Origin: Candidatus Bathyarchaeota archaeon
GTDB taxonomy: Archaea; Thermoproteota; Bathyarchaeia; 40CM-2-53-6
Assembly: GCA_963780265.1 (NCBI GenBank)
Contig: CAWABQ010000018.1
Span: forward strand, 2,558 to 66,557
Direction: 5' to 3'
DNA: 64,000 nt
Positions 38,594-50,182 of the stretch are shown one piece after another. How positions within the stretch are numbered: position 1 is the stretch's first letter; each line of letters starts with the position of its first letter. Position numbers and translations under genes: made by a program. Below the pieces are notes generated by a model that did no database searches, was not told the origin of the DNA, and was given only the letters and a program-made list of their open reading frames with translations.

Positions 38594-40023
38594 TTGGACA
38601 AATTCGCAGAAGTTTGTGACGCTGTTAAGAAGAAGATTGTGCCCCCGCCAAAATTGAAAAGCGCCGTCGAGTTGCGGGCCGAGCAGATCAGGAGCGATGT
38701 GGAGCGAGAGTGCATTAAGGCGAATCTCGAAGCGGAGGTCCGCTTGGACGGTTCCGTAGCGAAGGACACGTGGATACGGGATTATGCTGACGTCGACATA
38801 TTCATGAGAGTCTCTCCGCAGCTTAGCAAAGCGCAGCTCCGAGATGTATGCTTGCCAGTCGCCCGCGAAGCACTCCGCCCTCACAAAATCGTCGAGAGAT
38901 ACGCGGAGCACCCGTACATTGAATCAACAGTCGATCTGGGAAGAAGCAGTGTGCTTCGGGTCAACGTTGTCCCATGCTACAAGGTCGAGAAGGGTAACTG
39001 GTTAAGCGCCACAGACAGGAGCCCCTACCACACCGAGTACATTCGGCAACACCTCACTGAAGCGCGGCGCAACGAAGTTCGCCTGCTAAAGGCCTTCATG
39101 AAGGGCATAGGGAGCTACGGAGCGGACATCAAAACTGGTGGCTTCAGCGGAATGTTATGCGAAACGCTCATTGTTTCGCAGGAGAATTCCAACAAGTTGT
39201 CAGCGATTTCACACAATGGCAAGAGAACGAATTCGTAGATGTCGAAAACTACTACAAAGGAAGACGTGAGGAAGCGCATCGCATCTTTAGGGAACCGTTG
39301 ATCGTCATCGATCCCGTGGACAAAGGCCGTAACTTAGCCGCCGCAGTCCGACAACACCAGCTTTGGAATTTTGTCGCTGCATGCAGGCAGTTTAACTCGA
39401 GACCATCAGCCGCTCTCTTCGATGAACCAAAGGTGAGAAGGCTGACGCCGACTGACTACCAGAAACTCGTTCGAACTCGTGAGTCGACAATTCTCTGCCT
39501 AGTCGTTGGGGAGATAGATGCAGTTGTCGATATTCTCTGGAGCCAACTCTACCGGACGCGGAGAGCGCTCCTAAGCCTTCTCGAAAATACTGACTTTAAA
39601 GTACTGCAATCATGGGCTTGGACCGATGAAAAGTCACTGACTATCATTTTGTTCGAATTGGAGCAAGGACAGCTACCCAGAACTAGGCACCACGCTGGCC
39701 CCCCAGTTTCCAAGCTTGAGGAAAGTGCTTCCTTTCTATCAAAACATGCGAAGAACGCGAGTACAGTCTCCGGTCCCTGGATTGAACATACCCGGTGGGT
39801 AGTTCAAAAGAGGAGAACGGTTGTTTCCGCAAAGGCCTTGCTCGCCTCAGCCCTCCGTTCGGGGGGAGAAGATGTCGGCGTTGCTGCTTTGCTAGCCAAG
39901 TCCTTCCGGAAGAAGACACGAATTCTTGAAAATGAGAAGATTGGAATGCTGATTGCCTCAAATACGGACTTTGCTAAGGCCATGAGAACCTACCTCTCAG
40001 GAAGGCCAGCATGGTTTGAATGA
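38594..40023 (+). pseudogene. cca: Archaeal class I CCA-adding tRNA nucleotidyltransferase with a frameshift near 39172-39178
   Basis: The N-terminal ORF ...RLDGSVAKDTWIRDYADVDIF...GGFSGMLCETLIV continues in the -1 frame as ..FAGEFQQVVSDFTQW... A 1-nt deletion would explain it. Confidence 0.7.
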
Positions 40024-40813: not shown

Positions 40814-40994
40814 GGGGCCGTCGTCTAGAAGAGATTGCGAGCGCAACTCTCTGGACAGCTTGGTCTGGGAACACGATTCCGCCAACAGGATACCAGAGCG
40901 CAACTGCGCGCGGTGAACCTGGGGCGCTGGCGTCCCCAAGAAACAAGGGTCTTGGGGCCAGAGGTCGTGGGTTCAAATCCCACCGGCCCCACCA
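40814..40994 (+). tRNA. Intron-containing tRNA gene with genomically encoded CCA. The anticodon is unresolved (CCC/Gly in my manual fold, while the acceptor stem looks Pro-like).
   Basis: Acceptor GGGGCCG/CGGCCCC, T arm GTGGG-TTCAAAT-CCCAC, discriminator A, then CCA. The 178-nt span needs about 100 nt removed. Proposed introns are 40829-40858, about 40870-40923 and about 40937-40955. Confidence 0.7.
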
Positions 40995-41008
40995 CTTCGT
41001 GGGTTCAG
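40967..41008 (+). repeat. attL-like direct repeat (tRNA T arm through CCA plus 14 nt)
   Basis: GTGGGTTCAAATCCCACCGGCCCCACCACTTCGTGGGTTCAG. Confidence 0.75.
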
Positions 41009-41056
41009 AACATTCTTTAACCTGCTTCCGCGCTCTAGTTTAGCGCAGGTTTCCAG

Positions 41057-42493
41057 TTGCCGTACAAGGGTCTGGATAAGCTCAAGGAGAAAATTACCGA
41101 GCCGTGTGTTAAGGAGTGGGCGGACACCCTGAAGGAGGGCGATAAGACCACTCTGTATGGCGTTCTGAAGTATCTGGACTGGGTTAGGGAAAACGAGTAT
41201 TTTCAATCAGCGCAGGAGATGCTGGACGACCAGAAGCTCTGCATGCAATCGACAGACGAGGATGTGAAGTACAAGCACCTAGAAATCGTGAAGAAGTACG
41301 TGGGAGGCAAGCGATACCTTACCGGGTCGCATAATGGGGAGCTGGTCGGTGTCCGTGACCGTAGGGCAACTTTTGATTCAATAAAAAGATTCTACGAACA
41401 TTACCGTCGGAAGCTTCCCGACCTGACGAGGAGTGAAGCCAAGGAGCTGTTCGTAGCAACTGAGCTTGACAGGCGTAGGGCTAGACAGATGAAAAAACCG
41501 CTTACAGCCGAGGAAGTCCAAAGGCTGGTAATGGCTATGCCCCAGCCGTACAGGGCGATAATCCTCGTGCTCTTTCAGGGCGCTTTGGGTTTGGCGGAGT
41601 GGGATCAGTTCAACCGTGAACTTTGGCATAACATTGTGCCCGATCTCGACAAGCCAGGCCCGATTAAGATCGATGGATTGATCCGGGTGAAAACGGAGGC
41701 ACAGAAGACCGCAATGAGTGGTGAGGTGCCCCTATACTATACCTACCTTGGTCACGATGCAAAAACGATGCTGAAGGAATGGCTGAACATTAGGCAGCGC
41801 ATGAAGACCGACCTGCCCCATCTTTTTGTCGTAAGAAGCAAGGGGCCGAGAAGCAAGGGTACCTTTGTTCCTGTTACTGGTTGGCTTGTGGAGAAGAATG
41901 TGACGGATCATTCGAAGAGAATTGGATTGATTCCGTACAAGAGCGATGTCAATCGATACCGGGTTCATCCGCACAGGCTTCGAAAGCTGTTCAAGAGCCT
42001 CTGCTCAACGCACGGAGTAGACGAAGTTGTGTCAGAATGGTGTATGGGTCATAACATAGACCGGCTCGGCTACGACGAAAGCCCCGACCTAGATGAGAAA
42101 TTCTTCCGTGACGAGTACAAGAAGGTTGAACCTTCCCTGAACATAATATCGAATCCAGCGGGTGGTTCAGTGGCGGAAGAGGCGAGACGTGAGGCAAGAG
42201 CCGAATTGAATCGCCAACGTCTTCTCGTTGCCCACTACTCGGAGAAACAGATCGAGCAGATGGGTGACCTTTCACGATTCACTACAGACGAGGTTCGAGA
42301 AATGGTCAGGAAGAAACGGCAGCTTGCCAAACAGAAATCCACGGCGCTTAACGGTGGTCAACCCGACGGCAAGGCTGGTAGGCATAAGGTTGTTCCTGTT
42401 GACGAAGTTGCTAAGTGGCTTGATGACGGGTGGGTTTTCGTTCACCGGCTCTCGGATAATCAGGTGGTTATCCGGTTTCCGCCAACCGCTTAG
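41057..42493 (+). CDS. Tyrosine recombinase / integrase
   Basis: 478 aa. HPHRLRKLF (HxxR), CMGH and LGYDE (Tyr) motifs. I could not identify the box I Arg by eye. Confidence 0.8.
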   Translation: MPYKGLDKLKEKITEPCVKEWADTLKEGDKTTLYGVLKYLDWVRENEYFQSAQEMLDDQKLCMQSTDEDVKYKHLEIVKKYVGGKRYLTGSHNGELVGVRDRRATFDSIKRFYEHYRRKLPDLTRSEAKELFVATELDRRRARQMKKPLTAEEVQRLVMAMPQPYRAIILVLFQGALGLAEWDQFNRELWHNIVPDLDKPGPIKIDGLIRVKTEAQKTAMSGEVPLYYTYLGHDAKTMLKEWLNIRQRMKTDLPHLFVVRSKGPRSKGTFVPVTGWLVEKNVTDHSKRIGLIPYKSDVNRYRVHPHRLRKLFKSLCSTHGVDEVVSEWCMGHNIDRLGYDESPDLDEKFFRDEYKKVEPSLNIISNPAGGSVAEEARREARAELNRQRLLVAHYSEKQIEQMGDLSRFTTDEVREMVRKKRQLAKQKSTALNGGQPDGKAGRHKVVPVDEVAKWLDDGWVFVHRLSDNQVVIRFPPTA

Positions 42494-42662
42494 CTTTGGC
42501 GTCAAGCATTTTGCTGTAAGCGTCCATCTTTATGTCCGCCTCTATCTCGGGAAGAGTGTCCGGTTCAGCGAGAATAGCGTCACGAAGCTCGTTGTCGGCT
42601 AGGTATTTGTCCGTTCTCGCCCACGCCTTAACGCCTTCGAAGCTCACCATGTCCTCAGTCAA
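42468..42662 (-). CDS. Hypothetical small protein
   Basis: 64-aa acidic ORF, convergent with the integrase. Confidence 0.4.
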   Translation of the reverse strand: MTEDMVSFEGVKAWARTDKYLADNELRDAILAEPDTLPEIEADIKMDAYSKMLDAKAKRLAETG

Positions 42663-42726
42663 CCACGAGCGCCCAGAAAGAGAGTTATACTGTCACTTTG
42701 ATAAGGTATGCCAATGTGTTTCCAGT

Positions 42727-42966
42727 ATGTCAGAAGAGAAGCTGAGCGGTGCCGAAAAGGCAAAGGAGCTTCTGCGATCAGGTCGGCATGTCTTCCTGCA
42801 AACGGTGGGATATTCTGAGCATGAAATCCTTGGATTCGGAGATCTTGGCGAGCTATCTTCTGATAAAGTAAGCGAACTGCTTCACAGGAAAGCCTTGGAA
42901 GCGTTCGCTAGGTATTTTGACAAGGAAAATGTTCGGGTCAAGCGGCTCAATGAAGCAAATGAGTGA
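42727..42966 (+). CDS. Hypothetical small protein
   Basis: MSEEKLSGAEKAKELLRSG... The internal Met of ORF 42532-42966 was chosen to avoid overlap with the minus-strand ORF. Confidence 0.4.
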   Translation: MSEEKLSGAEKAKELLRSGRHVFLQTVGYSEHEILGFGDLGELSSDKVSELLHRKALEAFARYFDKENVRVKRLNEANE

Positions 42967-42996
42967 AACTGGTTTGCCGTCCGGTCTTCCGAGCGT

Positions 42997-43485
42997 ATGC
43001 GGCTGAAGTTAATGAAACTATTTGATCTGTTTCGCAGAGCAAAGGCTGAACGGCCCGAAAACATGGGTGCGGACATTCTAAGAATCGAAAATAGAACTCA
43101 AATGTTCTGCTACTACAATACATTGGCATTGGAAATCTTAGCAGCTACCCTTGCCAGCGTTATCGCTTTAGAAACTCTCCCATTCGTTGTCAACAATGAA
43201 CTCCGCAACAAAATGTTCCTTCCAATCAACGCTGGATGCACTCTGATACTCGTAGGCGGAGCATATCTCTTTTACCATCTGCGAAGTCTTGCGGCCAGGT
43301 GGATAAGTTTCCCTTGGGAAGATGATCGCACGAGTCCTAAAGCGTGGATAGACTATGTGGAGATAGGCGACTGGAAGACACGTCGCTCGCCCAGGGAGAT
43401 TATAACCGATACTGGCTTGATTGCCTTCATCGTTGCAGCAGCAATCATTGGCGTTTCGGCGTGGTTCTGGTTCGGATTGAAATGA
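42997..43485 (+). CDS. Membrane protein, hypothetical
   Basis: 162 aa with 3-4 TM segments. Confidence 0.5.
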   Translation: MRLKLMKLFDLFRRAKAERPENMGADILRIENRTQMFCYYNTLALEILAATLASVIALETLPFVVNNELRNKMFLPINAGCTLILVGGAYLFYHLRSLAARWISFPWEDDRTSPKAWIDYVEIGDWKTRRSPREIITDTGLIAFIVAAAIIGVSAWFWFGLK

Positions 43486-43617
43486 TCGTGTTGAGATGAA
43501 TCAGTGCGCCGCTGAATCGCTGTGGTTCTTGCATAAGTTGCCACAAGAATTTTGTTTGAGTTGTCACGAAGAATCGGACGAGTTGCCTGCTAACCAGCGT
43601 AAGGAACCTTGGAAAGT

Positions 43618-43980
43618 GGAGACAACAGCTATTCGTTTTTCTTGGTCAAACCCTTTCGGTCTGTTGTCTCTTATGACAGAGTTTTCACCACCCCCGCGGA
43701 CGCTCGCCACCCGCCGAAATCCTGACCATTATTCCGTTGTCTCCGGTTTTCGATGGAATTTGCGTGGAAATTCGCCACGAATTCCACCCTTGCTTATATC
43801 CTCGCTCGGCCAGAGCTAGTTCACGATGCGAGTGAGCCTTTCAAAGGACATCATTCGATCGTTACCGTGACAACGTGCGACGACGTGCCCGGGCGGGCTG
43901 ATTTCGACTTACTCGTTATTGTATTCGTTGACTAACGCTTTCGAGGATACACAGGACGGAGACAACGGGTGGGAGACAGC
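43618..43980. repeat. Iteron-like GGAGACAAC repeats in a mostly non-coding stretch
   Basis: GGAGACAACAG at 43618-43628 with its inverted partner at 43661-43670. CGTTGTCTCC at 43735-43744. GGAGACAACG at 43958-43967. GGAGACAGC at 43972-43980. Confidence 0.6.
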
Positions 43981-44055
43981 AATTTCGATTCGAAGAAGAA
44001 CAATCTCGTGCGGAGAGCATCTAATTCGATGAGAAATGCGGCTATTTGAAAACGC

Positions 44056-44523
44056 TTACCGACAAGTAGATTCCATGAGCATTGCGCTCATTCCGCTTCT
44101 CAGGACGTGCGTGCGCATCACGCTGGCGGATTTGGCATGTAAAGTCACTTCGAGGAACGTGCGCCTAGCCTTCATCAATTCTCGACACGCACGCTGAGTC
44201 TCAACGCTAAACATCATAGTAGATTTGTTTTGACTCAAAGTTGCAAAGTGAATCCAGGAGCAAGTCCAGATGCAGGCGCAGGCGCCGACACACGCTTCGC
44301 TTTTTGAGGTTTTGTTTTTCTTGTCCATCACGGTAGAGGTTGCTACATTTTCCTCTTTCCTACTTGATTTCCAATTACCTTTTCTGCTCTTTCTTTGCTT
44401 CGGCCTCTTTCCGCATCTGGCGCTTTTCAGAGCTGCTGGTCTCTTCCTGTCACTTCTGCTTTGGTTGTGGTCGCTTTTCTTCCCTTTTGTCTTCGCTTTT
44501 CGGCTCGCTTTGTTCGCTTTCAC
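44056..44523 (-). CDS. Highly basic Lys/Arg/Ser-rich hypothetical protein
   Basis: 155-aa ORF lying in a tract that is pyrimidine-rich on the plus strand. Coding status is doubtful. Confidence 0.3.
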   Translation of the reverse strand: MKANKASRKAKTKGKKSDHNQSRSDRKRPAALKSARCGKRPKQRKSRKGNWKSSRKEENVATSTVMDKKNKTSKSEACVGACACIWTCSWIHFATLSQNKSTMMFSVETQRACRELMKARRTFLEVTLHAKSASVMRTHVLRSGMSAMLMESTCR

Positions 44524-44615
44524 TCTTTTCTGAAGCCCGCCCTTTCTTGGCGGCGGCGGTCTAAATGTCGATTAACGATATTGAAGCGAATTGAGAGAAG
44601 AAAGAGGAGGCGAGG

Positions 44616-44831
44616 TTATTCTCGGCGTTTCGCTGGGCGAGGCCCCGTAGGGCGTTTTTCTGATCGGTACTTTTCGATTGCTCTGTCGAGAAGTTGCATA
44701 TCGTGTTGAATGGATGAGCGGTATCTCTCTATCCTCCAGAAGAGTTGGTGTATGCTTCTCATCCTGGCACCTGTACGGAGGAATACGTCCAATTTCTTCC
44801 GTTCGTTCTCGCTGAAGATTGAGCTGTTCAT
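44616..44831 (-). CDS. Small putative DNA-binding regulator
   Basis: 71 aa, divergent from the NYN gene across an operator-like repeat array. Confidence 0.45.
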   Translation of the reverse strand: MNSSIFSENERKKLDVFLRTGARMRSIHQLFWRIERYRSSIQHDMQLLDRAIEKYRSEKRPTGPRPAKRRE

Positions 44832-44861
44832 GGAGATACTTCCTTGAAGATATTCCCTGTA

Positions 44862-44914
44862 ACGGAATATTTATATCTTTATTCCGTGTATAGGAATATT
44901 CCGTGTGACGGAAT
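44862..44914. promoter_or_regulatory. Array of ACGGAAT / ATTCCGT half-sites in a divergent promoter
   Basis: ACGGAATA (44862-44869) pairs with TATTCCGT (44880-44887) around tttatat. GGAATATTCC palindrome at 44893-44902. ATTCCGT-gtg-ACGGAAT at 44898-44914. Confidence 0.6.
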
Positions 44915-45514
44915 ATGGCTCAACAATCCGTGAACGCCGAGAGTGACGAAGTAGGTAGGGGTGTCCAGCTGCTTATCGACGGAGAAAACCTCTACATGAG
45001 GACGGTTGAATACTTGAAAGCACGGAACATGCCTTCAGACACGGCAGCTGCAACCGAATTTATCCTTGCAAAAATCGGCGAACTTGTTGATTCGATTGAA
45101 GACAGATAGGTCTCCGGATCGATGTAGGATACTATTACTTGACCAGCGTCGGCGTGGACGCATTACGAAGCAGAAGAATGCTTGGTGGGATTCAAAGAAC
45201 AGTTAAGGCAGTTGGGAATCGAGATACGGTGTAATAGACAAGCGGAATGACAAGGCAGGAAACGTTGACCCTCGCTTAATCTCGGAGGCATACCGGCTCC
45301 TGCTTATTGAGAAGAAGGCGCCTTCTAACCTGGTTCTTGTGAGCGGCGACAAAGACTACGAACCCATGCTCGCAGACTACGAGAAGCAAAGCCGACAAGT
45401 AGCCATATGCTTCTATCTGCCTGGAGGCGGAGGAGCATCCATAGACCTACTGAGCATAAGAGGAACAGAATTCATCAACTTTGACAATCCGCAACAATCG
45501 TGGATAATTGCGTA
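44915..45514 (+). pseudogene. NYN (LabA-like) domain nuclease gene, heavily degraded
   Basis: N-terminal VQLLIDGENLY and C-terminal LVLVSGDKDYEPML are in the same frame. They are separated by TAG (45107) and TAA (45203), and the middle segment reads in other frames. Confidence 0.65.
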
Positions 45515-45633
45515 GCGACCTGCAGGATCTTACTGAACTTCGCCTCTTACTATCTTGGGGAGATTCATAGCAGCCTGTTGGTAGGCTTCCATCATCCGTT
45601 GAACAATAGTTACTTTCGGGGAAGAAAGTGGGC

Positions 45634-46332
45634 TCAAAAAGCCAACTTAACTACGGCTTGATCCAATTTCAGTATTTCACCGGCGCCAAGAGCAATGAGT
45701 TGGCTTTTTTTCTTCGGTTTATGAAAGTTGTTGTCCTCTGTTAGGAAGATGCCACCACCGTATCGAATGTGGCTCCACATTGCGAGTACATCACATTTTG
45801 GGTTACGCCAGTGTCGGTCTATTTCCCCACTTTTCGGGTCAAGATCCTTTTTCTTACAGAACTCTTCGTAGGAAAATTGGATCTCTGGAAAGAGTATTTC
45901 ATGTATCTTTTGCTCAAGTTCCAGCATGGGAACACTGGCAGTTACGCACCAATCAATGTAGGTAATGTCCAAGTAACATAGTGGCTTTAGAATCTCTACC
46001 TTTCCAAGCCCCACGGCAGTAATCCTGTTCCTAAACTCAGAGAAATTCGAAGCATATGTTCGATCAGGTTTTTTTTCAGAAGCGCTGATTGCGACTACTC
46101 TCAGGTTGATCCTGTGGTCGTCATGCATCTTGGCGAGTGTCCTTAGTCTACTCGCTCTGCCTTGTACCGCTTGACTCGCTATGCCTACTGCCTTTTCAAG
46201 ATCGATGATGTAATTGGTATCAAGCGTCACATTGACATTCTGAAACGGCGCATCACCCAAGCTCTTCCTAGGTGCAACTGACAGTAATTTCAGTGTTGCC
46301 TCAACCGAGTATGCGTCAGCGGTGTGACACAA
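45634..46332 (-). CDS. PIN-domain-like nuclease
   Basis: VTLDTNYIIDLEK near the N-terminus and GIFLTEDNNF near the C-terminus fit PIN acidic motifs. 232 aa. Confidence 0.5.
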   Translation of the reverse strand: MCHTADAYSVEATLKLLSVAPRKSLGDAPFQNVNVTLDTNYIIDLEKAVGIASQAVQGRASRLRTLAKMHDDHRINLRVVAISASEKKPDRTYASNFSEFRNRITAVGLGKVEILKPLCYLDITYIDWCVTASVPMLELEQKIHEILFPEIQFSYEEFCKKKDLDPKSGEIDRHWRNPKCDVLAMWSHIRYGGGIFLTEDNNFHKPKKKSQLIALGAGEILKLDQAVVKLAF

Positions 46333-46346
46333 CAGTTAACAGAGGA

Positions 46347-47348
46347 ATGAGGGAACCTATACTCTTGTGGTGGAGCTTGCCATATTGTTCAAGATGCGGA
46401 ACGGAGCTAACCGCAGGCATTAAGTTCTGCACAAATTGTGGAGCATCAACCTCAGCTCCACTTCCAACCGTGCCCCCCGTGCAGACTAAGCCTTCGCACA
46501 CGAAAAGGAATCTTGCCATCATCGTAATCTTTGTGATTCTGGTTGGAGTTGTCGCAGCCGCCTCTTCCAGGGGCCCCTCTCAGAGTGGCACCACGCAGAC
46601 CACGATTGGTGAATTACCGACAGGGAGTACAGTCACCATCGGAGAGCCGTTCATTGTGAAAGGCACGGACGATGTGCCTGTGCAGCTAAACTTCACATCA
46701 GCTTGGTTCGCAATGCGGTACGACGACACTGGAGCCGTCTCACCCAACAAGTATTTCGTGCTCGAATTCCAGATGAAGAATGTTGGAATTAGATCGACCA
46801 GTGTGTTTTCTCTTGCGTTCCTGAAGTGGGATGCGCTCGTAGATAAGGGGTACATTTACGAGTCCGACAATTACGCTGACTGGAATTTCAGCTCAGGTGT
46901 GGGGCCTGCAGAAGTTGCCACTAATAATGTGGTCTTCAATATTCTGGCGGCAACGACTCCGCTCGAAGTCAGGTACTACGATACGTGCGCAGGGAGCACT
47001 GCGGATTGTTCTCCCACTTTCACGGTGAACTTGCGTGGAATCACCATCCCTGCCAAAGAAGAGTTGACTGTTGAGTCTTCCTCCTCCTTCTGCGCCTTCC
47101 AAAATGGAACGGTAAACATGCTCAATGTCACCAACTCAGGGCTCGCTGCTGTAACCATAGCAGAGGTCTACTACGCTGACCAAATTGTCAATGCGAACCC
47201 CACACAGATCCGGCCCGGAGAAACAGTCGGCATACCCATCACCATCCCAAGCAACATTCAGGCAGGCTTCGCTCAACAGTACGAAATCAAAGTCGTCACC
47301 ACTCAAGGTAACACGTTCACAGAAAACTGCTACTACGAGGGGTCGTGA
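46347..47348 (+). CDS. Zinc-ribbon / single-TM / extracellular beta-domain protein
   Basis: YCSRCGTELTAGIKFCTNCGAS, then the TM segment LAIIVIFVILVGVVAAA, then a DUF4352-like segment. The start was moved to an internal Met. Confidence 0.6.
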   Translation: MREPILLWWSLPYCSRCGTELTAGIKFCTNCGASTSAPLPTVPPVQTKPSHTKRNLAIIVIFVILVGVVAAASSRGPSQSGTTQTTIGELPTGSTVTIGEPFIVKGTDDVPVQLNFTSAWFAMRYDDTGAVSPNKYFVLEFQMKNVGIRSTSVFSLAFLKWDALVDKGYIYESDNYADWNFSSGVGPAEVATNNVVFNILAATTPLEVRYYDTCAGSTADCSPTFTVNLRGITIPAKEELTVESSSSFCAFQNGTVNMLNVTNSGLAAVTIAEVYYADQIVNANPTQIRPGETVGIPITIPSNIQAGFAQQYEIKVVTTQGNTFTENCYYEGS

Positions 47349-47810
47349 ATGGCTGAAAGAACGCCCGAGTTCGTTCTCGGACTCGCCGGCGGGATACTGG
47401 GATTGGTGGCGGCTCCGATCATGTTTCTTGCCGGAGGAATACTCGCCGCCTTTGGTCTAAGCTCTGGCGTAACCCTAGTTGGAGTCTCGGTTGTAGGTGG
47501 GATTCTATCGATAGTTGGATTGATTGGGGCGGCGTTCGTCAAAAGTCATCCAAAAGCGTCGGGTGTCATGATGCTTCTGAGCGGTCTGCTCGGCCTGTTT
47601 GTTGTCCTAGGCTTCTGGCTTGGCGCTCTATTGCTGCTGGTGGCAGGTGTTGTAGCGCTTCTAAGGAAAGAGAAGTCTACCAAGCCTCCACCGCCGCCAC
47701 CATCGACCCAAACGAAGGTCTTCTGTACGAACTGCGGCAAACCCTTGACCTATGTTCAACAGTACCAGAAATGGTATTGTGAAAACTGCAAACAGTACGC
47801 CCCCTCCTAA
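47349..47810 (+). CDS. Multi-TM protein with a C-terminal zinc ribbon
   Basis: Gly-rich TM segments, a PPPPPP linker, then FCTNCGKPL...YCENCKQ. Confidence 0.6.
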   Translation: MAERTPEFVLGLAGGILGLVAAPIMFLAGGILAAFGLSSGVTLVGVSVVGGILSIVGLIGAAFVKSHPKASGVMMLLSGLLGLFVVLGFWLGALLLLVAGVVALLRKEKSTKPPPPPPSTQTKVFCTNCGKPLTYVQQYQKWYCENCKQYAPS

Positions 47811-47976
47811 CGAGTTTCTTTGTTCGCCGAAAAATACGTGAATCGTCTCCGAAAAACGCCTTATTTGTCTGCTCTGCGTTAACGCCTCTGATGGACAAGG
47901 AAAATAGTCCGATGCGAAGACATAAGTCAATCTTTACTCCTTATGCTGTCAGATTCTCTCTCATCTGTGAGCGTGT

Positions 47977-48861
47977 ATGAAAATTAGCAGTGCGTCGATG
48001 TTACTCGTTCTCGCTCTGGTGGCAACGCCAAGTCAAGTATTTGCTAGCATGACCTTTCCTCAAAACGGATCAAGTTTGACCTATGCGAGCTTTGTCACTT
48101 CCAAAACGTCGCAAGGAAACATTACTGCAGCTTCAACCGATTCATACAGCTTTCAACAGACAGGGAGCCAATGGAATGTGACAGAAAGGATTACAGGGAA
48201 AATCACTTGCTCTCCTCAGGCAGCGCAATTGAGTGTCAGGTTTCGTACAACGTCGGATATCATGGGAGCAAACTCAATCGTCTCAAATGACCCGAACATA
48301 GACATCAAAGTAAGTTACGTGGTACAAGACAGAGTCGTTGAATCGACTCCAATTGGGTCAAACGTACCAGCGGGATATTCCGCAGAGTGTACTGTTGGAG
48401 GAATTGACGTAGCGGCTGTTTCTCAAGCGACACCTGCATTGTACGTGTCTGGCTTTCGCTACTACGTCTTGCTCTATATTCAAACCGCCGGAGTCGCTGT
48501 GGGAAGTTCAGTGCCGGTTGCAATTATGACTTCTACAATATCAGGAATTCAGAATGTGATAGTACTGAATACTTCGCGGCCAGCGTTTGTGGGAACCATT
48601 ACAGGTATCACAAGTGGAAGCTTGTACTGGGACAGGGACAGCGGTATCCTGCTCTCGGAAGAATCGACCAGCAGTACACAATCAGAGAGAATGTTGCTAA
48701 CTTACAGCACTGTACCTATTCCAGAATTTGAGTTGTCACAAATCATCGCAATCGTAACCACAACCATTACATTGTTTGCGCTCGCAGTAAACCGAAAACG
48801 ACCTCATTCAAGCTCACGTCGATTATCCGTACCCATAATTTCCTATTTGTCTTCGCCTTAG
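47977..48861 (+). CDS. Secreted protein with a PEF-CTERM-type sorting signal
   Basis: Signal peptide present. The C-terminus reads VPIPEFELSQIIAIVTTTITLFALAVNRKR. Confidence 0.65.
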   Translation: MKISSASMLLVLALVATPSQVFASMTFPQNGSSLTYASFVTSKTSQGNITAASTDSYSFQQTGSQWNVTERITGKITCSPQAAQLSVRFRTTSDIMGANSIVSNDPNIDIKVSYVVQDRVVESTPIGSNVPAGYSAECTVGGIDVAAVSQATPALYVSGFRYYVLLYIQTAGVAVGSSVPVAIMTSTISGIQNVIVLNTSRPAFVGTITGITSGSLYWDRDSGILLSEESTSSTQSERMLLTYSTVPIPEFELSQIIAIVTTTITLFALAVNRKRPHSSSRRLSVPIISYLSSP

Positions 48862-48930
48862 GTTATGTGACTAAGAGGGGATACGTGCGAATCCTTCCTG
48901 TGGTAGGAATATTACTGAACCCACGACCTA

Positions 48931-48972
48931 GTGGGTTCGTATCCCACCGGCCCCACCACTTTCGTGGGGACG
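48931..48972 (+). repeat. attR-like tRNA 3-prime fragment (DR2)
   Basis: GTGGGTTCGTATCCCACCGGCCCCACCACTTTCGTGGGGACG. It is preceded by the inverted copy GAACCCAC (48917-48924), forming an 8-bp hairpin. Confidence 0.75.
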
Positions 48973-50154: not shown

Positions 50155-50182
50155 GTGGGTACATATCCCATCGACCCCACGA
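50155..50182 (+). repeat. Degenerate tRNA 3-prime-end copy (DR3a)
   Basis: GTGGGTACATATCCCATCGACCCCACGA, about 21/28 identical to the tRNA end. Preceded by the inverted copy GTACCCAC at 50140-50147. Confidence 0.55.

Follow-up and report, generated by a model that had tools for sequence, protein, structure and literature searches.

A tRNA-Pro(GGG) gene with four predicted introns in a Bathyarchaeia archaeon from soil or peat

The locus at positions 40814-40994 (+) of the window, by which we mean the whole 64,000-nucleotide stretch of DNA that was analysed, starts with GGGGCCG and ends with GTGGG-TTCAAAT-CCCAC-CGGCCCC-A-CCA, which corresponds to a T arm without mismatches, the strand complementary to the acceptor 5' half, A73 and a CCA present in the DNA. 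The precursor measures 181 nt from end to end, with about 103 nt of extra sequence between the two tRNA ends. Which tRNA, if any, is encoded here, and where would the intervening sequence have to be cut to obtain it? The first-pass annotation had noticed the acceptor halves GGGGCCG/CGGCCCC, the T arm and the genomic A73-CCA, all of which are present, and had proposed a tRNA gene that needs the removal of three introns, two of them in the D arm. Our analysis bears out the general idea that this is an archaeal tRNA gene with several introns and with its CCA in the genome. From the comparison of sequences, we conclude that the locus is very probably a functional tRNA-Pro(GGG) gene of a soil or peat Bathyarchaeia archaeon, interrupted by four introns.

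ARAGORN, run with or without its intron mode, made no call of this gene and found no tRNA in the whole window, and a search of Rfam at gathering thresholds returned nothing; the Rfam tRNA model gave a partial, sub-threshold match of 19.4 bits. At relaxed thresholds, the Rfam tmRNA model (RF00023) reached 28.5 bits against a threshold of 47 and paired exactly the two tRNA-like ends. A tmRNA identity was rejected, since these ends alone align, the score is below the threshold and ARAGORN sees no tmRNA. The test for a split or permuted tRNA gene was also negative, the five exons being colinear within 181 nt.

In the proposed structure (Table 1), exons of 15, 8, 10, 15 and 31 nt are joined into a 79-nt sequence upon removal of introns of 30, 20, 21 and 31 nt. 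ARAGORN, which is silent on the unspliced window, recognizes the spliced 79-mer as tRNA-Pro(ggg), with a flawless cloverleaf and CUGGGGC as the anticodon loop. The predicted product reads GGGGCCG UC GUCU AGCUUGGUCUA GGAU A CCAGC CUGGGGC GCUGG CGGUC GUGGG UUCAAAU CCCAC CGGCCCC A CCA. All of its stems are perfect (the D stem with two G-U pairs), and U8, A14, G18G19, A21, U33 and G37 are present; the predicted product is a 76-nt class-I tRNA followed by a CCA that is already encoded. The GGG isoacceptor of archaeal tRNA-Pro is characterized by the anticodon GGG in a 7-nt loop, U33, G37, A73 and the pairs G1-C72, G2-C71 and G3-C70. The loop CUGGGGC, the acceptor GGGGCCG/CGGCCCC and A73 of the locus match these features of the archaeal tRNA-Pro GGG isoacceptor. 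The earlier reading had wavered between CCC (Gly) and proline; its remark that the acceptor points to proline stands, and the anticodon is unambiguous, GGG in a normal loop.

Table 1. Predicted features of the tRNA-Pro(GGG) gene and of the element downstream of it. Coordinates are those of the window; the arrow marks the predicted cut within a bulge; positions in the details column follow tRNA numbering.
Feature	Coordinates	Strand	Details
Exon 1	40814-40828	+	GGGGCCGTCGTCTAG; positions 1-15: acceptor 5' strand, U8, C9, D-stem 5' strand GUCU, A14, G15
Intron 1 (30 nt)	40829-40858	+	15/16 (D loop); central helix GTCT/GGAC; bulges AG↓A and AG↓C; inner helix AGAGA/TCTCT, extended by TTGCG/CGCAA
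Exon 2 (8-nt micro-exon)	40859-40866	+	CTTGGTCT; positions 16-20b, D loop with G18 G19
Intron 2 (20 nt)	40867-40886	+	20b/21; central helix TGGT/GCCA; bulges CT↓G and AC↓A; inner helix GGAA/TTCC
Exon 3	40887-40896	+	AGGATACCAG; positions 21-30: A21, D-stem 3' strand GGAU, A26, anticodon stem C27-G30
Intron 3 (21 nt)	40897-40917	+	30/31 (anticodon stem); central helix TACC/GGTG; bulges AG↓A and AA↓C; inner helix GCGC/GCGC
Exon 4	40918-40932	+	CCTGGGGCGCTGGCG; positions 31-45: C31, loop C32 U33 G34 G35 G36 G37 C38, stem 39-43 GCUGG, C44 G45
Anticodon GGG	40921-40923	+	Within exon 4
Intron 4 (31 nt)	40933-40963	+	45/46 (variable loop); central helix CTGG/CCAG; bulges CG↓T and AG↓G; inner helix CCCCAAG(A)/(T)CTTGGGG
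Exon 5	40964-40994	+	GTC, T arm GTGGG-TTCAAAT-CCCAC, CGGCCCC, A73 and encoded CCA (40992-40994)
attL-like repeat	40967-40994	+	Last 28 nt of the tRNA, then CTTCGTGGG; second copy at 48931-48958 with 2 mismatches
Integrase-like gene (478 aa)	41057-42493	+	Pfam Phage_integrase, weak match (E 0.0018, 18.5 bits), below cut-off
attR-like repeat	48931-48958	+	GTGGGTTCGTATCCCACCGGCCCCACCA, then CTTTCGTGGG; closes the ~7.9-kb element (40995-48930)

The splice junctions were assigned with the bulge-helix-bulge (BHB) register described for position 37/38 (PMC4090602). In this register, the central helix joins the exon, at i-5..i-2 ahead of the 5' cut, to the intron, at j-5..j-2, the inner helix runs from i+2/j-6, and each strand carries a 3-nt bulge that is cut after its second base. 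At all four junction pairs, the central helix is paired in 4 of 4 positions, both bulges are 3 nt long and the handedness is canonical. The inner helices of introns 1-4 comprise 5, 4, 4 and 8 bp and the outer helices 0, 2, 0 and 1 bp, so that the strict hBHBh' form is found at none of them. Since the outer helix is weak or absent (0-2 bp), the motifs would be of the relaxed HBh' type known from Crenarchaeota. The minimum-free-energy fold of the precursor, computed without any splice assumptions, consists of the acceptor stem, four hairpins and the T arm (z = -4.2).

To score the alternatives, we enumerated the products of at most five deletions compatible with a relaxed BHB. Among the 281,640 distinct products scored, the best cloverleaf score, 32, was obtained for the four-intron product; it was shared only with a variant in which the last intron is moved by two bases, and the next sequence-distinct solution scored 27. 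An independent recursive solver returned the same four introns. None of these measures was used as the sole judge. The precursor contains 12 strict BHB candidates, compared with 5.2 ± 2.9 in shuffled sequences (p about 0.03), and a count that is so weakly above chance was rejected as the only criterion. ARAGORN passes 3,663 of the 281,640 artificial products, with many identities, and the cloverleaf features were therefore scored explicitly. The cloverleaf score was not decisive on its own either, because three or fewer deletions, placed without constraint, are enough for a score of 31 of 32, albeit in solutions that have G32, odd D loops and no BHB support. The decision thus rests on the BHB motifs together with the orthologues.

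Two further sets of candidates were tried and dropped. If the BHB of intron 1 is given the mirror handedness, with GTCT/GGAC as outer helix, AGA as bulge and AGAG/CTCT as central helix, the D loop keeps TCTCTGGACAG and lacks G18G19; we therefore adopted the canonical handedness, with GTCT/GGAC as the central helix. Anticodon arms built on CTGGC/GCCAG, on TCTGG/CCAGA with a CTTGGGG loop (Pro-TGG) or on TTGGT/GCCAG gave no workable D arm or BHB junctions.

The comparison with relatives settles the predicted exon-intron structure. The four-intron gene occurs in 18 species of the genus, this one included, with a length of 176-184 nt and 84-94% identity; within the genus, the exons are essentially invariant and the intron loops vary freely. 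A wider, order-wide set of 47 orthologues was collected by a search with exon 1 and by fetching loci, and was parsed by one exon-anchored pattern; it covers five genera in two families. All 47 splice by the same rule to a tRNA-Pro(GGG) with nearly invariant exons: exon 1 is identical in 47/47, and in exon 2 position 20b alone varies (T/C/A/G). One more orthologue, from a genome of a third family (G026, family f3), was read by eye and stands outside the 47 pattern-parsed genes. CCA is encoded in 47 of the 48 orthologues, the exception being a gene in which A73 is followed by CTA (L021, G024:C29).

The intron helices are conserved as pairs. Within the genus, the BHB pairs are preserved in 96.9% of cells, and double-sided changes at these pairs were observed in 13 cells versus 5.0 ± 2.2 in shuffles; in the inner helix of intron 4, three pairs are altered on both sides. 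Broken pairs were found for the first pair of the intron 3 central helix, in three species, and for the first pair of its inner helix, in one. Across genera, where pairs were counted by their distance from the splice sites and hence free of any alignment, the inner-helix pairs are represented by two to four Watson-Crick/GU types with pairing kept (e.g. 17/17, 33/33 and 32/32). For instance, pair 3 of intron 2 is AT in 3, GC in 7 and CG in 7 genes, pair 2 of intron 3 is CG in 25 and TA in 8, and pair 3 of intron 3 is GC in 16, GU in 4 and CG in 13. The inner helix of intron 2 reads GGGG/CCCC, GACA/TGTC or GGAT/ATCT elsewhere, which represents compensatory changes between genera, and that of intron 3 reads GTCCA/TGGAC, GCCRC/GYGGC or ACGCC/GGCGT in other genera.

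Some relatives provide the joints in uninterrupted form. In the sister genera g2, g3 and g15, which belong to the same family (f1), and in one genome of family f9 (G087), exons 1 and 2 run together as GTCTAG-CTTGGTC; the two exons are also contiguous in G026. The latter genome contains neither intron 1 nor intron 4 and reads GCTGG-CGGTC-GCGGG, which is the predicted joint of exons 4 and 5. The uninterrupted joints fix the boundaries of introns 1 and 4.

The 3' end of the tRNA is repeated downstream. The two 28-nt direct repeats listed in Table 1 are both followed by CTT(T)CGTGGG and enclose a mobile element of about 7.9 kb, integrated into the 3' end of the tRNA, with the integrase-like gene just inside. 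A degenerate third copy of the repeat, with 5 mismatches, was noticed at 50155-50182. Six more copies of the last 26-28 nt of the tRNA, without the 5' part, are present on contigs C13 (two), C24, C25, C28 and C41, and several of them are preceded by a common GAACCC(C)AC...ATATTGGTGGG motif; these copies look like att sites of related elements or relics. Upstream of the tRNA are genes for a THUMP-domain methyltransferase and a kinase-like protein, as well as one for a CCA-adding enzyme, whose reading frame is divided into two that overlap.

Three other explanations of the locus were weighed against the four-intron gene. The first follows the first-pass annotation and removes three segments, 40829-40858, about 40870-40923 and about 40937-40955, which joins ...GGUCUGGG to GCGCUGGC... 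and yields a Gly(CCC) or ambiguous tRNA. Its first intron is right: the 30-nt insert, with the hairpin AGAGATTGCG/CGCAAcTCTCT, is correct to the base. The placement of two introns in the D loop is right, too. It can also point to an anticodon stem, CTGGC/GCCAG, that is a perfect 5-bp pairing in the DNA and on which unconstrained three-deletion solutions attain a cloverleaf score of up to 31. The CTGG/CCAG pairing is, however, explained as the central helix of intron 4 rather than as an anticodon stem, and the count of three fails at the second and third junctions. The ends of the 54-nt insert give 2 of 4 central pairs and no inner helix; the segment covers the greater part of intron 2 and all of exon 3 and intron 3, and extends 6 nt into exon 4 so that it includes the anticodon, and the false Gly(CCC) reading arose because these parts had been merged. 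The 18-nt insert is the middle of a 31-nt intron and gives 1 of 4 central pairs and no inner helix at the ends chosen for it; the CAAG..CTTG hairpin seen there is real and belongs to the 7-8 bp inner helix of the last intron. When the junctions are checked for BHB motifs, as had been recommended, these two pairs thus fail, whereas all four pairs of the corrected structure pass. The three-intron product would have a 6-nt anticodon loop, G32 and G21, and ARAGORN labels it 'tRNA-?(Gly|Gly)(cc)'. The model removes AGGATACCAG and the CCTGGG of exon 4, both of which are nearly invariant in the 47 orthologues, and it is contradicted by the orthologues, G026 having no such segment. We regard its probability as negligible.

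In the second explanation, the same four introns are removed, with the last one cut at 43/44 (intron 40931-40961), which changes the variable loop from CGGUC to AGGUC. In the enumeration with relaxed BHBs, this variant shares the best cloverleaf score (32), and AGGUC is a common variable loop, but the strict BHB register (CTGG/CCAG 4/4, inner helix of 8 bp) places the cuts at 45/46, and the base before the 3' cut varies from G to A in two genomes (G015 and G022), as expected of a bulge base. The CGGTC at the empty site of G026 speaks directly for its exclusion, and we consider the 43/44 cut very unlikely. In the third, the locus makes no functional tRNA, being either a tRNA pseudogene in decay or an old att site left by mobile elements, with junk insertions throughout. 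The 3' end of the tRNA serves as an integration target, an element lies directly downstream and six copies of the 3' end are found on other contigs; moreover, the standard finders make no call and several genes in the assembly are frameshifted. Decay is nevertheless difficult to reconcile with exons that are nearly invariant in 47 genomes of two families and with intron helices kept by compensatory change. The relic copies have nothing upstream of the T arm, the other carriers of the acceptor in this 75%-complete genome are 3'-end fragments only, and a partial census of the genome yielded no second Pro(GGG), the Pro(TGG) gene being found elsewhere. A pseudogene or relic is, in our assessment, extremely unlikely, and the functional tRNA-Pro(GGG) gene with four introns is retained as the preferred interpretation.

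The orthologues also trace the history of the individual introns. Introns 2 and 3 are present in 48/48 orthologues, and intron 4 is present in families f1 and f9 and absent in G026 (f3). Intron 1 has a patchy distribution. It was found in 18/18 genomes of the genus of the archaeon studied here (g1, family f1) and in 0/26 orthologue genes of the sister genera g2, g3 and g15; at the same site, a 41-nt intron occurs in two of the three genomes of genus g11 of family f9 (L107/G086 and L109/G089) and is absent from the third (L108/G087). The 41-nt intron of g11 and the 30-nt intron of g1 have nothing in common beyond the bases forced by the BHB. This pattern is explained either by intron gain on two separate occasions at a single bond or by several losses. 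Separate gains at the 15/16 bond of tRNA-Pro(GGG) are a tentative reading, to which we assign somewhat less than an even chance. If the gains were independent, insertion of tRNA introns would be site-directed, a possible route being the action of EndA and the ligase in reverse on the D-arm structure, followed by copying back to DNA, and a genus in which some genomes have the intron and others do not would offer a natural setting for observing an intron as it is gained. More generally, the occurrence of the same gene with 2, 3 or 4 introns in relatives provides exact empty-site controls and a dated series for gain and loss.

A common origin of the introns within this gene, or their transposition, was considered and rejected. 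A 10-mer, GAGCGCAACT, had been put forward as a sign that two inserts share an origin. It does occur twice, in introns 1 and 3, but it is missing from each of the 18 further orthologues that were tested, in which no internal repeat exceeds 6-7 nt, and a repeat of at least 10 nt arises in 1.7% of shuffles. The repeat is thus a species-specific coincidence and not evidence for a common origin of introns, which remains unsupported. Searches of the genome with each intron (blastn-short) detected chance-level 10-15-mers and no paralogue of any of the four.

Based on the structure, the following course of processing can be proposed. The gene would be transcribed into a precursor of about 181 nt, which may fold with a hairpin of its own for each of the four introns, beside the acceptor stem and the T arm. 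In each hairpin, the four exon nucleotides upstream of the 5' site and intron nucleotides j-5..j-2 would form the 4-bp central helix, and an intron-internal helix of 4-8 bp would close the motif. The splicing endonuclease EndA would then cut at eight sites, and the RtcB ligase would join the five exons. We infer transcription, cleavages and ligation from the gene sequence and from the enzymes encoded in the genus. This genome has a gene for RtcB, which matches with 418.6 bits and lies in two frames (C13:14617-15928). The EndA match in this approximately 75%-complete assembly is weak and divided over two frames, with 21.6 and 21.3 bits, both under the cut-off (C42:30768-31006). In 20 of the 23 genomes of the genus, EndA is found above the Pfam cut-off, usually as two paralogues of about 190 aa. 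The presence of two paralogues suggests, by analogy, the broad-specificity two-subunit form of Crenarchaeota (PMC4090602). The CCA-adding enzyme (38594-40023), RtcB and EndA each lie in two adjacent frames in this assembly, which represents either assembly indel errors or really broken genes.

A heavy intron load is not confined to tRNA-Pro(GGG) in this genome. In a rough census, the 11 best-solved tRNA genes hold 21 introns, about 1.9 each, and one of the 11 is intron-free; the solver used is rough, in that many tRNA genes were poorly solved (scores <50) and the D-loop intron of Lys(TTT) was cut slightly wrong. The same rough census of this genome contains a three-intron tRNA-Asn(GTT) and several genes with two introns (C13:60778-60911 (-) and other contigs). 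A tRNA-Lys(UUU) of 189 nt (C42:43661-43849, +) appears to have four introns (D loop, 30/31, 37/38 and the 43-46 region); solved by hand, its D-loop intron has a clean BHB, with TCAG/CTGA and the inner helix GATCC/GGATC. In a related genome, a locus of about 200 nt (L028, G023:C13:141850-142200, +) carries the same GGGGCCG...CGGCCCCACCA acceptor and T arm around a different, heavily interrupted body, and is probably another proline isoacceptor with several introns. Because ARAGORN and the Rfam tRNA model miss the gene, genomes of this kind look as if they were without tRNA-Pro(GGG), which affects the tRNA counts used in genome-quality grading and inferences on codon reading. The locus should therefore be useful for annotation and for the study of intron gain.

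Reviews and the tRNAscan-SE 2.0 paper state a maximum of three introns per archaeal tRNA gene (PMC4033280, PMC8450103), and our full-text literature searches found no four-intron archaeal tRNAs in main texts. Supplementary Data 4 of Valentin-Alvarado et al. (2024, Nat Commun, PMC11291895), however, has columns for a fourth intron. For Freyarchaeia, it lists Arg-TCT and Ile2-CAT with four introns predicted and four observed, and Leu-GAG with 3/4 (predicted/observed); Atabeyarchaeia Trp-CCA is likewise listed with 3/4 (PMC11291895). As this Asgard supplement already includes four-intron tRNAs, the four introns described here tie the record and do not set one. Common to both are four small introns in one gene, mostly at non-canonical positions, in soil archaea in which nearly all tRNA genes bear introns and tRNAscan-SE misses some of them (PMC11291895). 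The differences are that our gene belongs to another phylum (Thermoproteota/Bathyarchaeia) and that Pro-GGG, with four introns here, has 1 and 3 introns in those Asgard genomes (PMC11291895). The Asgard counts are given in the supplementary table only, and the accessible text of that article presents no motif-by-motif or comparative support for them (PMC11291895).

The Thermoproteales and our archaeon have in common that the motifs, BHB or relaxed HBh', lie at non-canonical positions, that EndA is likely to consist of two subunits and that introns accumulated progressively in one lineage. For example, tRNA-Pro(UGG) of Pyrobaculum islandicum is interrupted at 25/26, at 37/38 and at 56/57 (Sugahara et al. 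2007/2008, cited in PMC4090602). The maximum stated for that order is three introns per gene (PMC4033280, PMC8450103) in contrast to four here; none of our four introns is at the canonical position 37/38, and the host belongs to a mesophilic soil lineage. Intron families of Thermoproteales suggested transposition (Fujishima et al. 2010, cited in PMC4090602), whereas no paralogous intron copies were found here. Nuclear tRNAs of Cyanidioschyzon merolae are similar in that they carry as many as three ectopic introns, often in the D loop, whose motifs are relaxed and BHB-like (PMC3728597), but this organism is a eukaryote (a red alga), some of its genes are also permuted and its splicing enzyme is a different one. 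With the predicted structure of tRNA-Pro(GGG), very heavy tRNA intron loads, seen before in Thermoproteales and recently in Asgard archaea, would extend to Bathyarchaeia.
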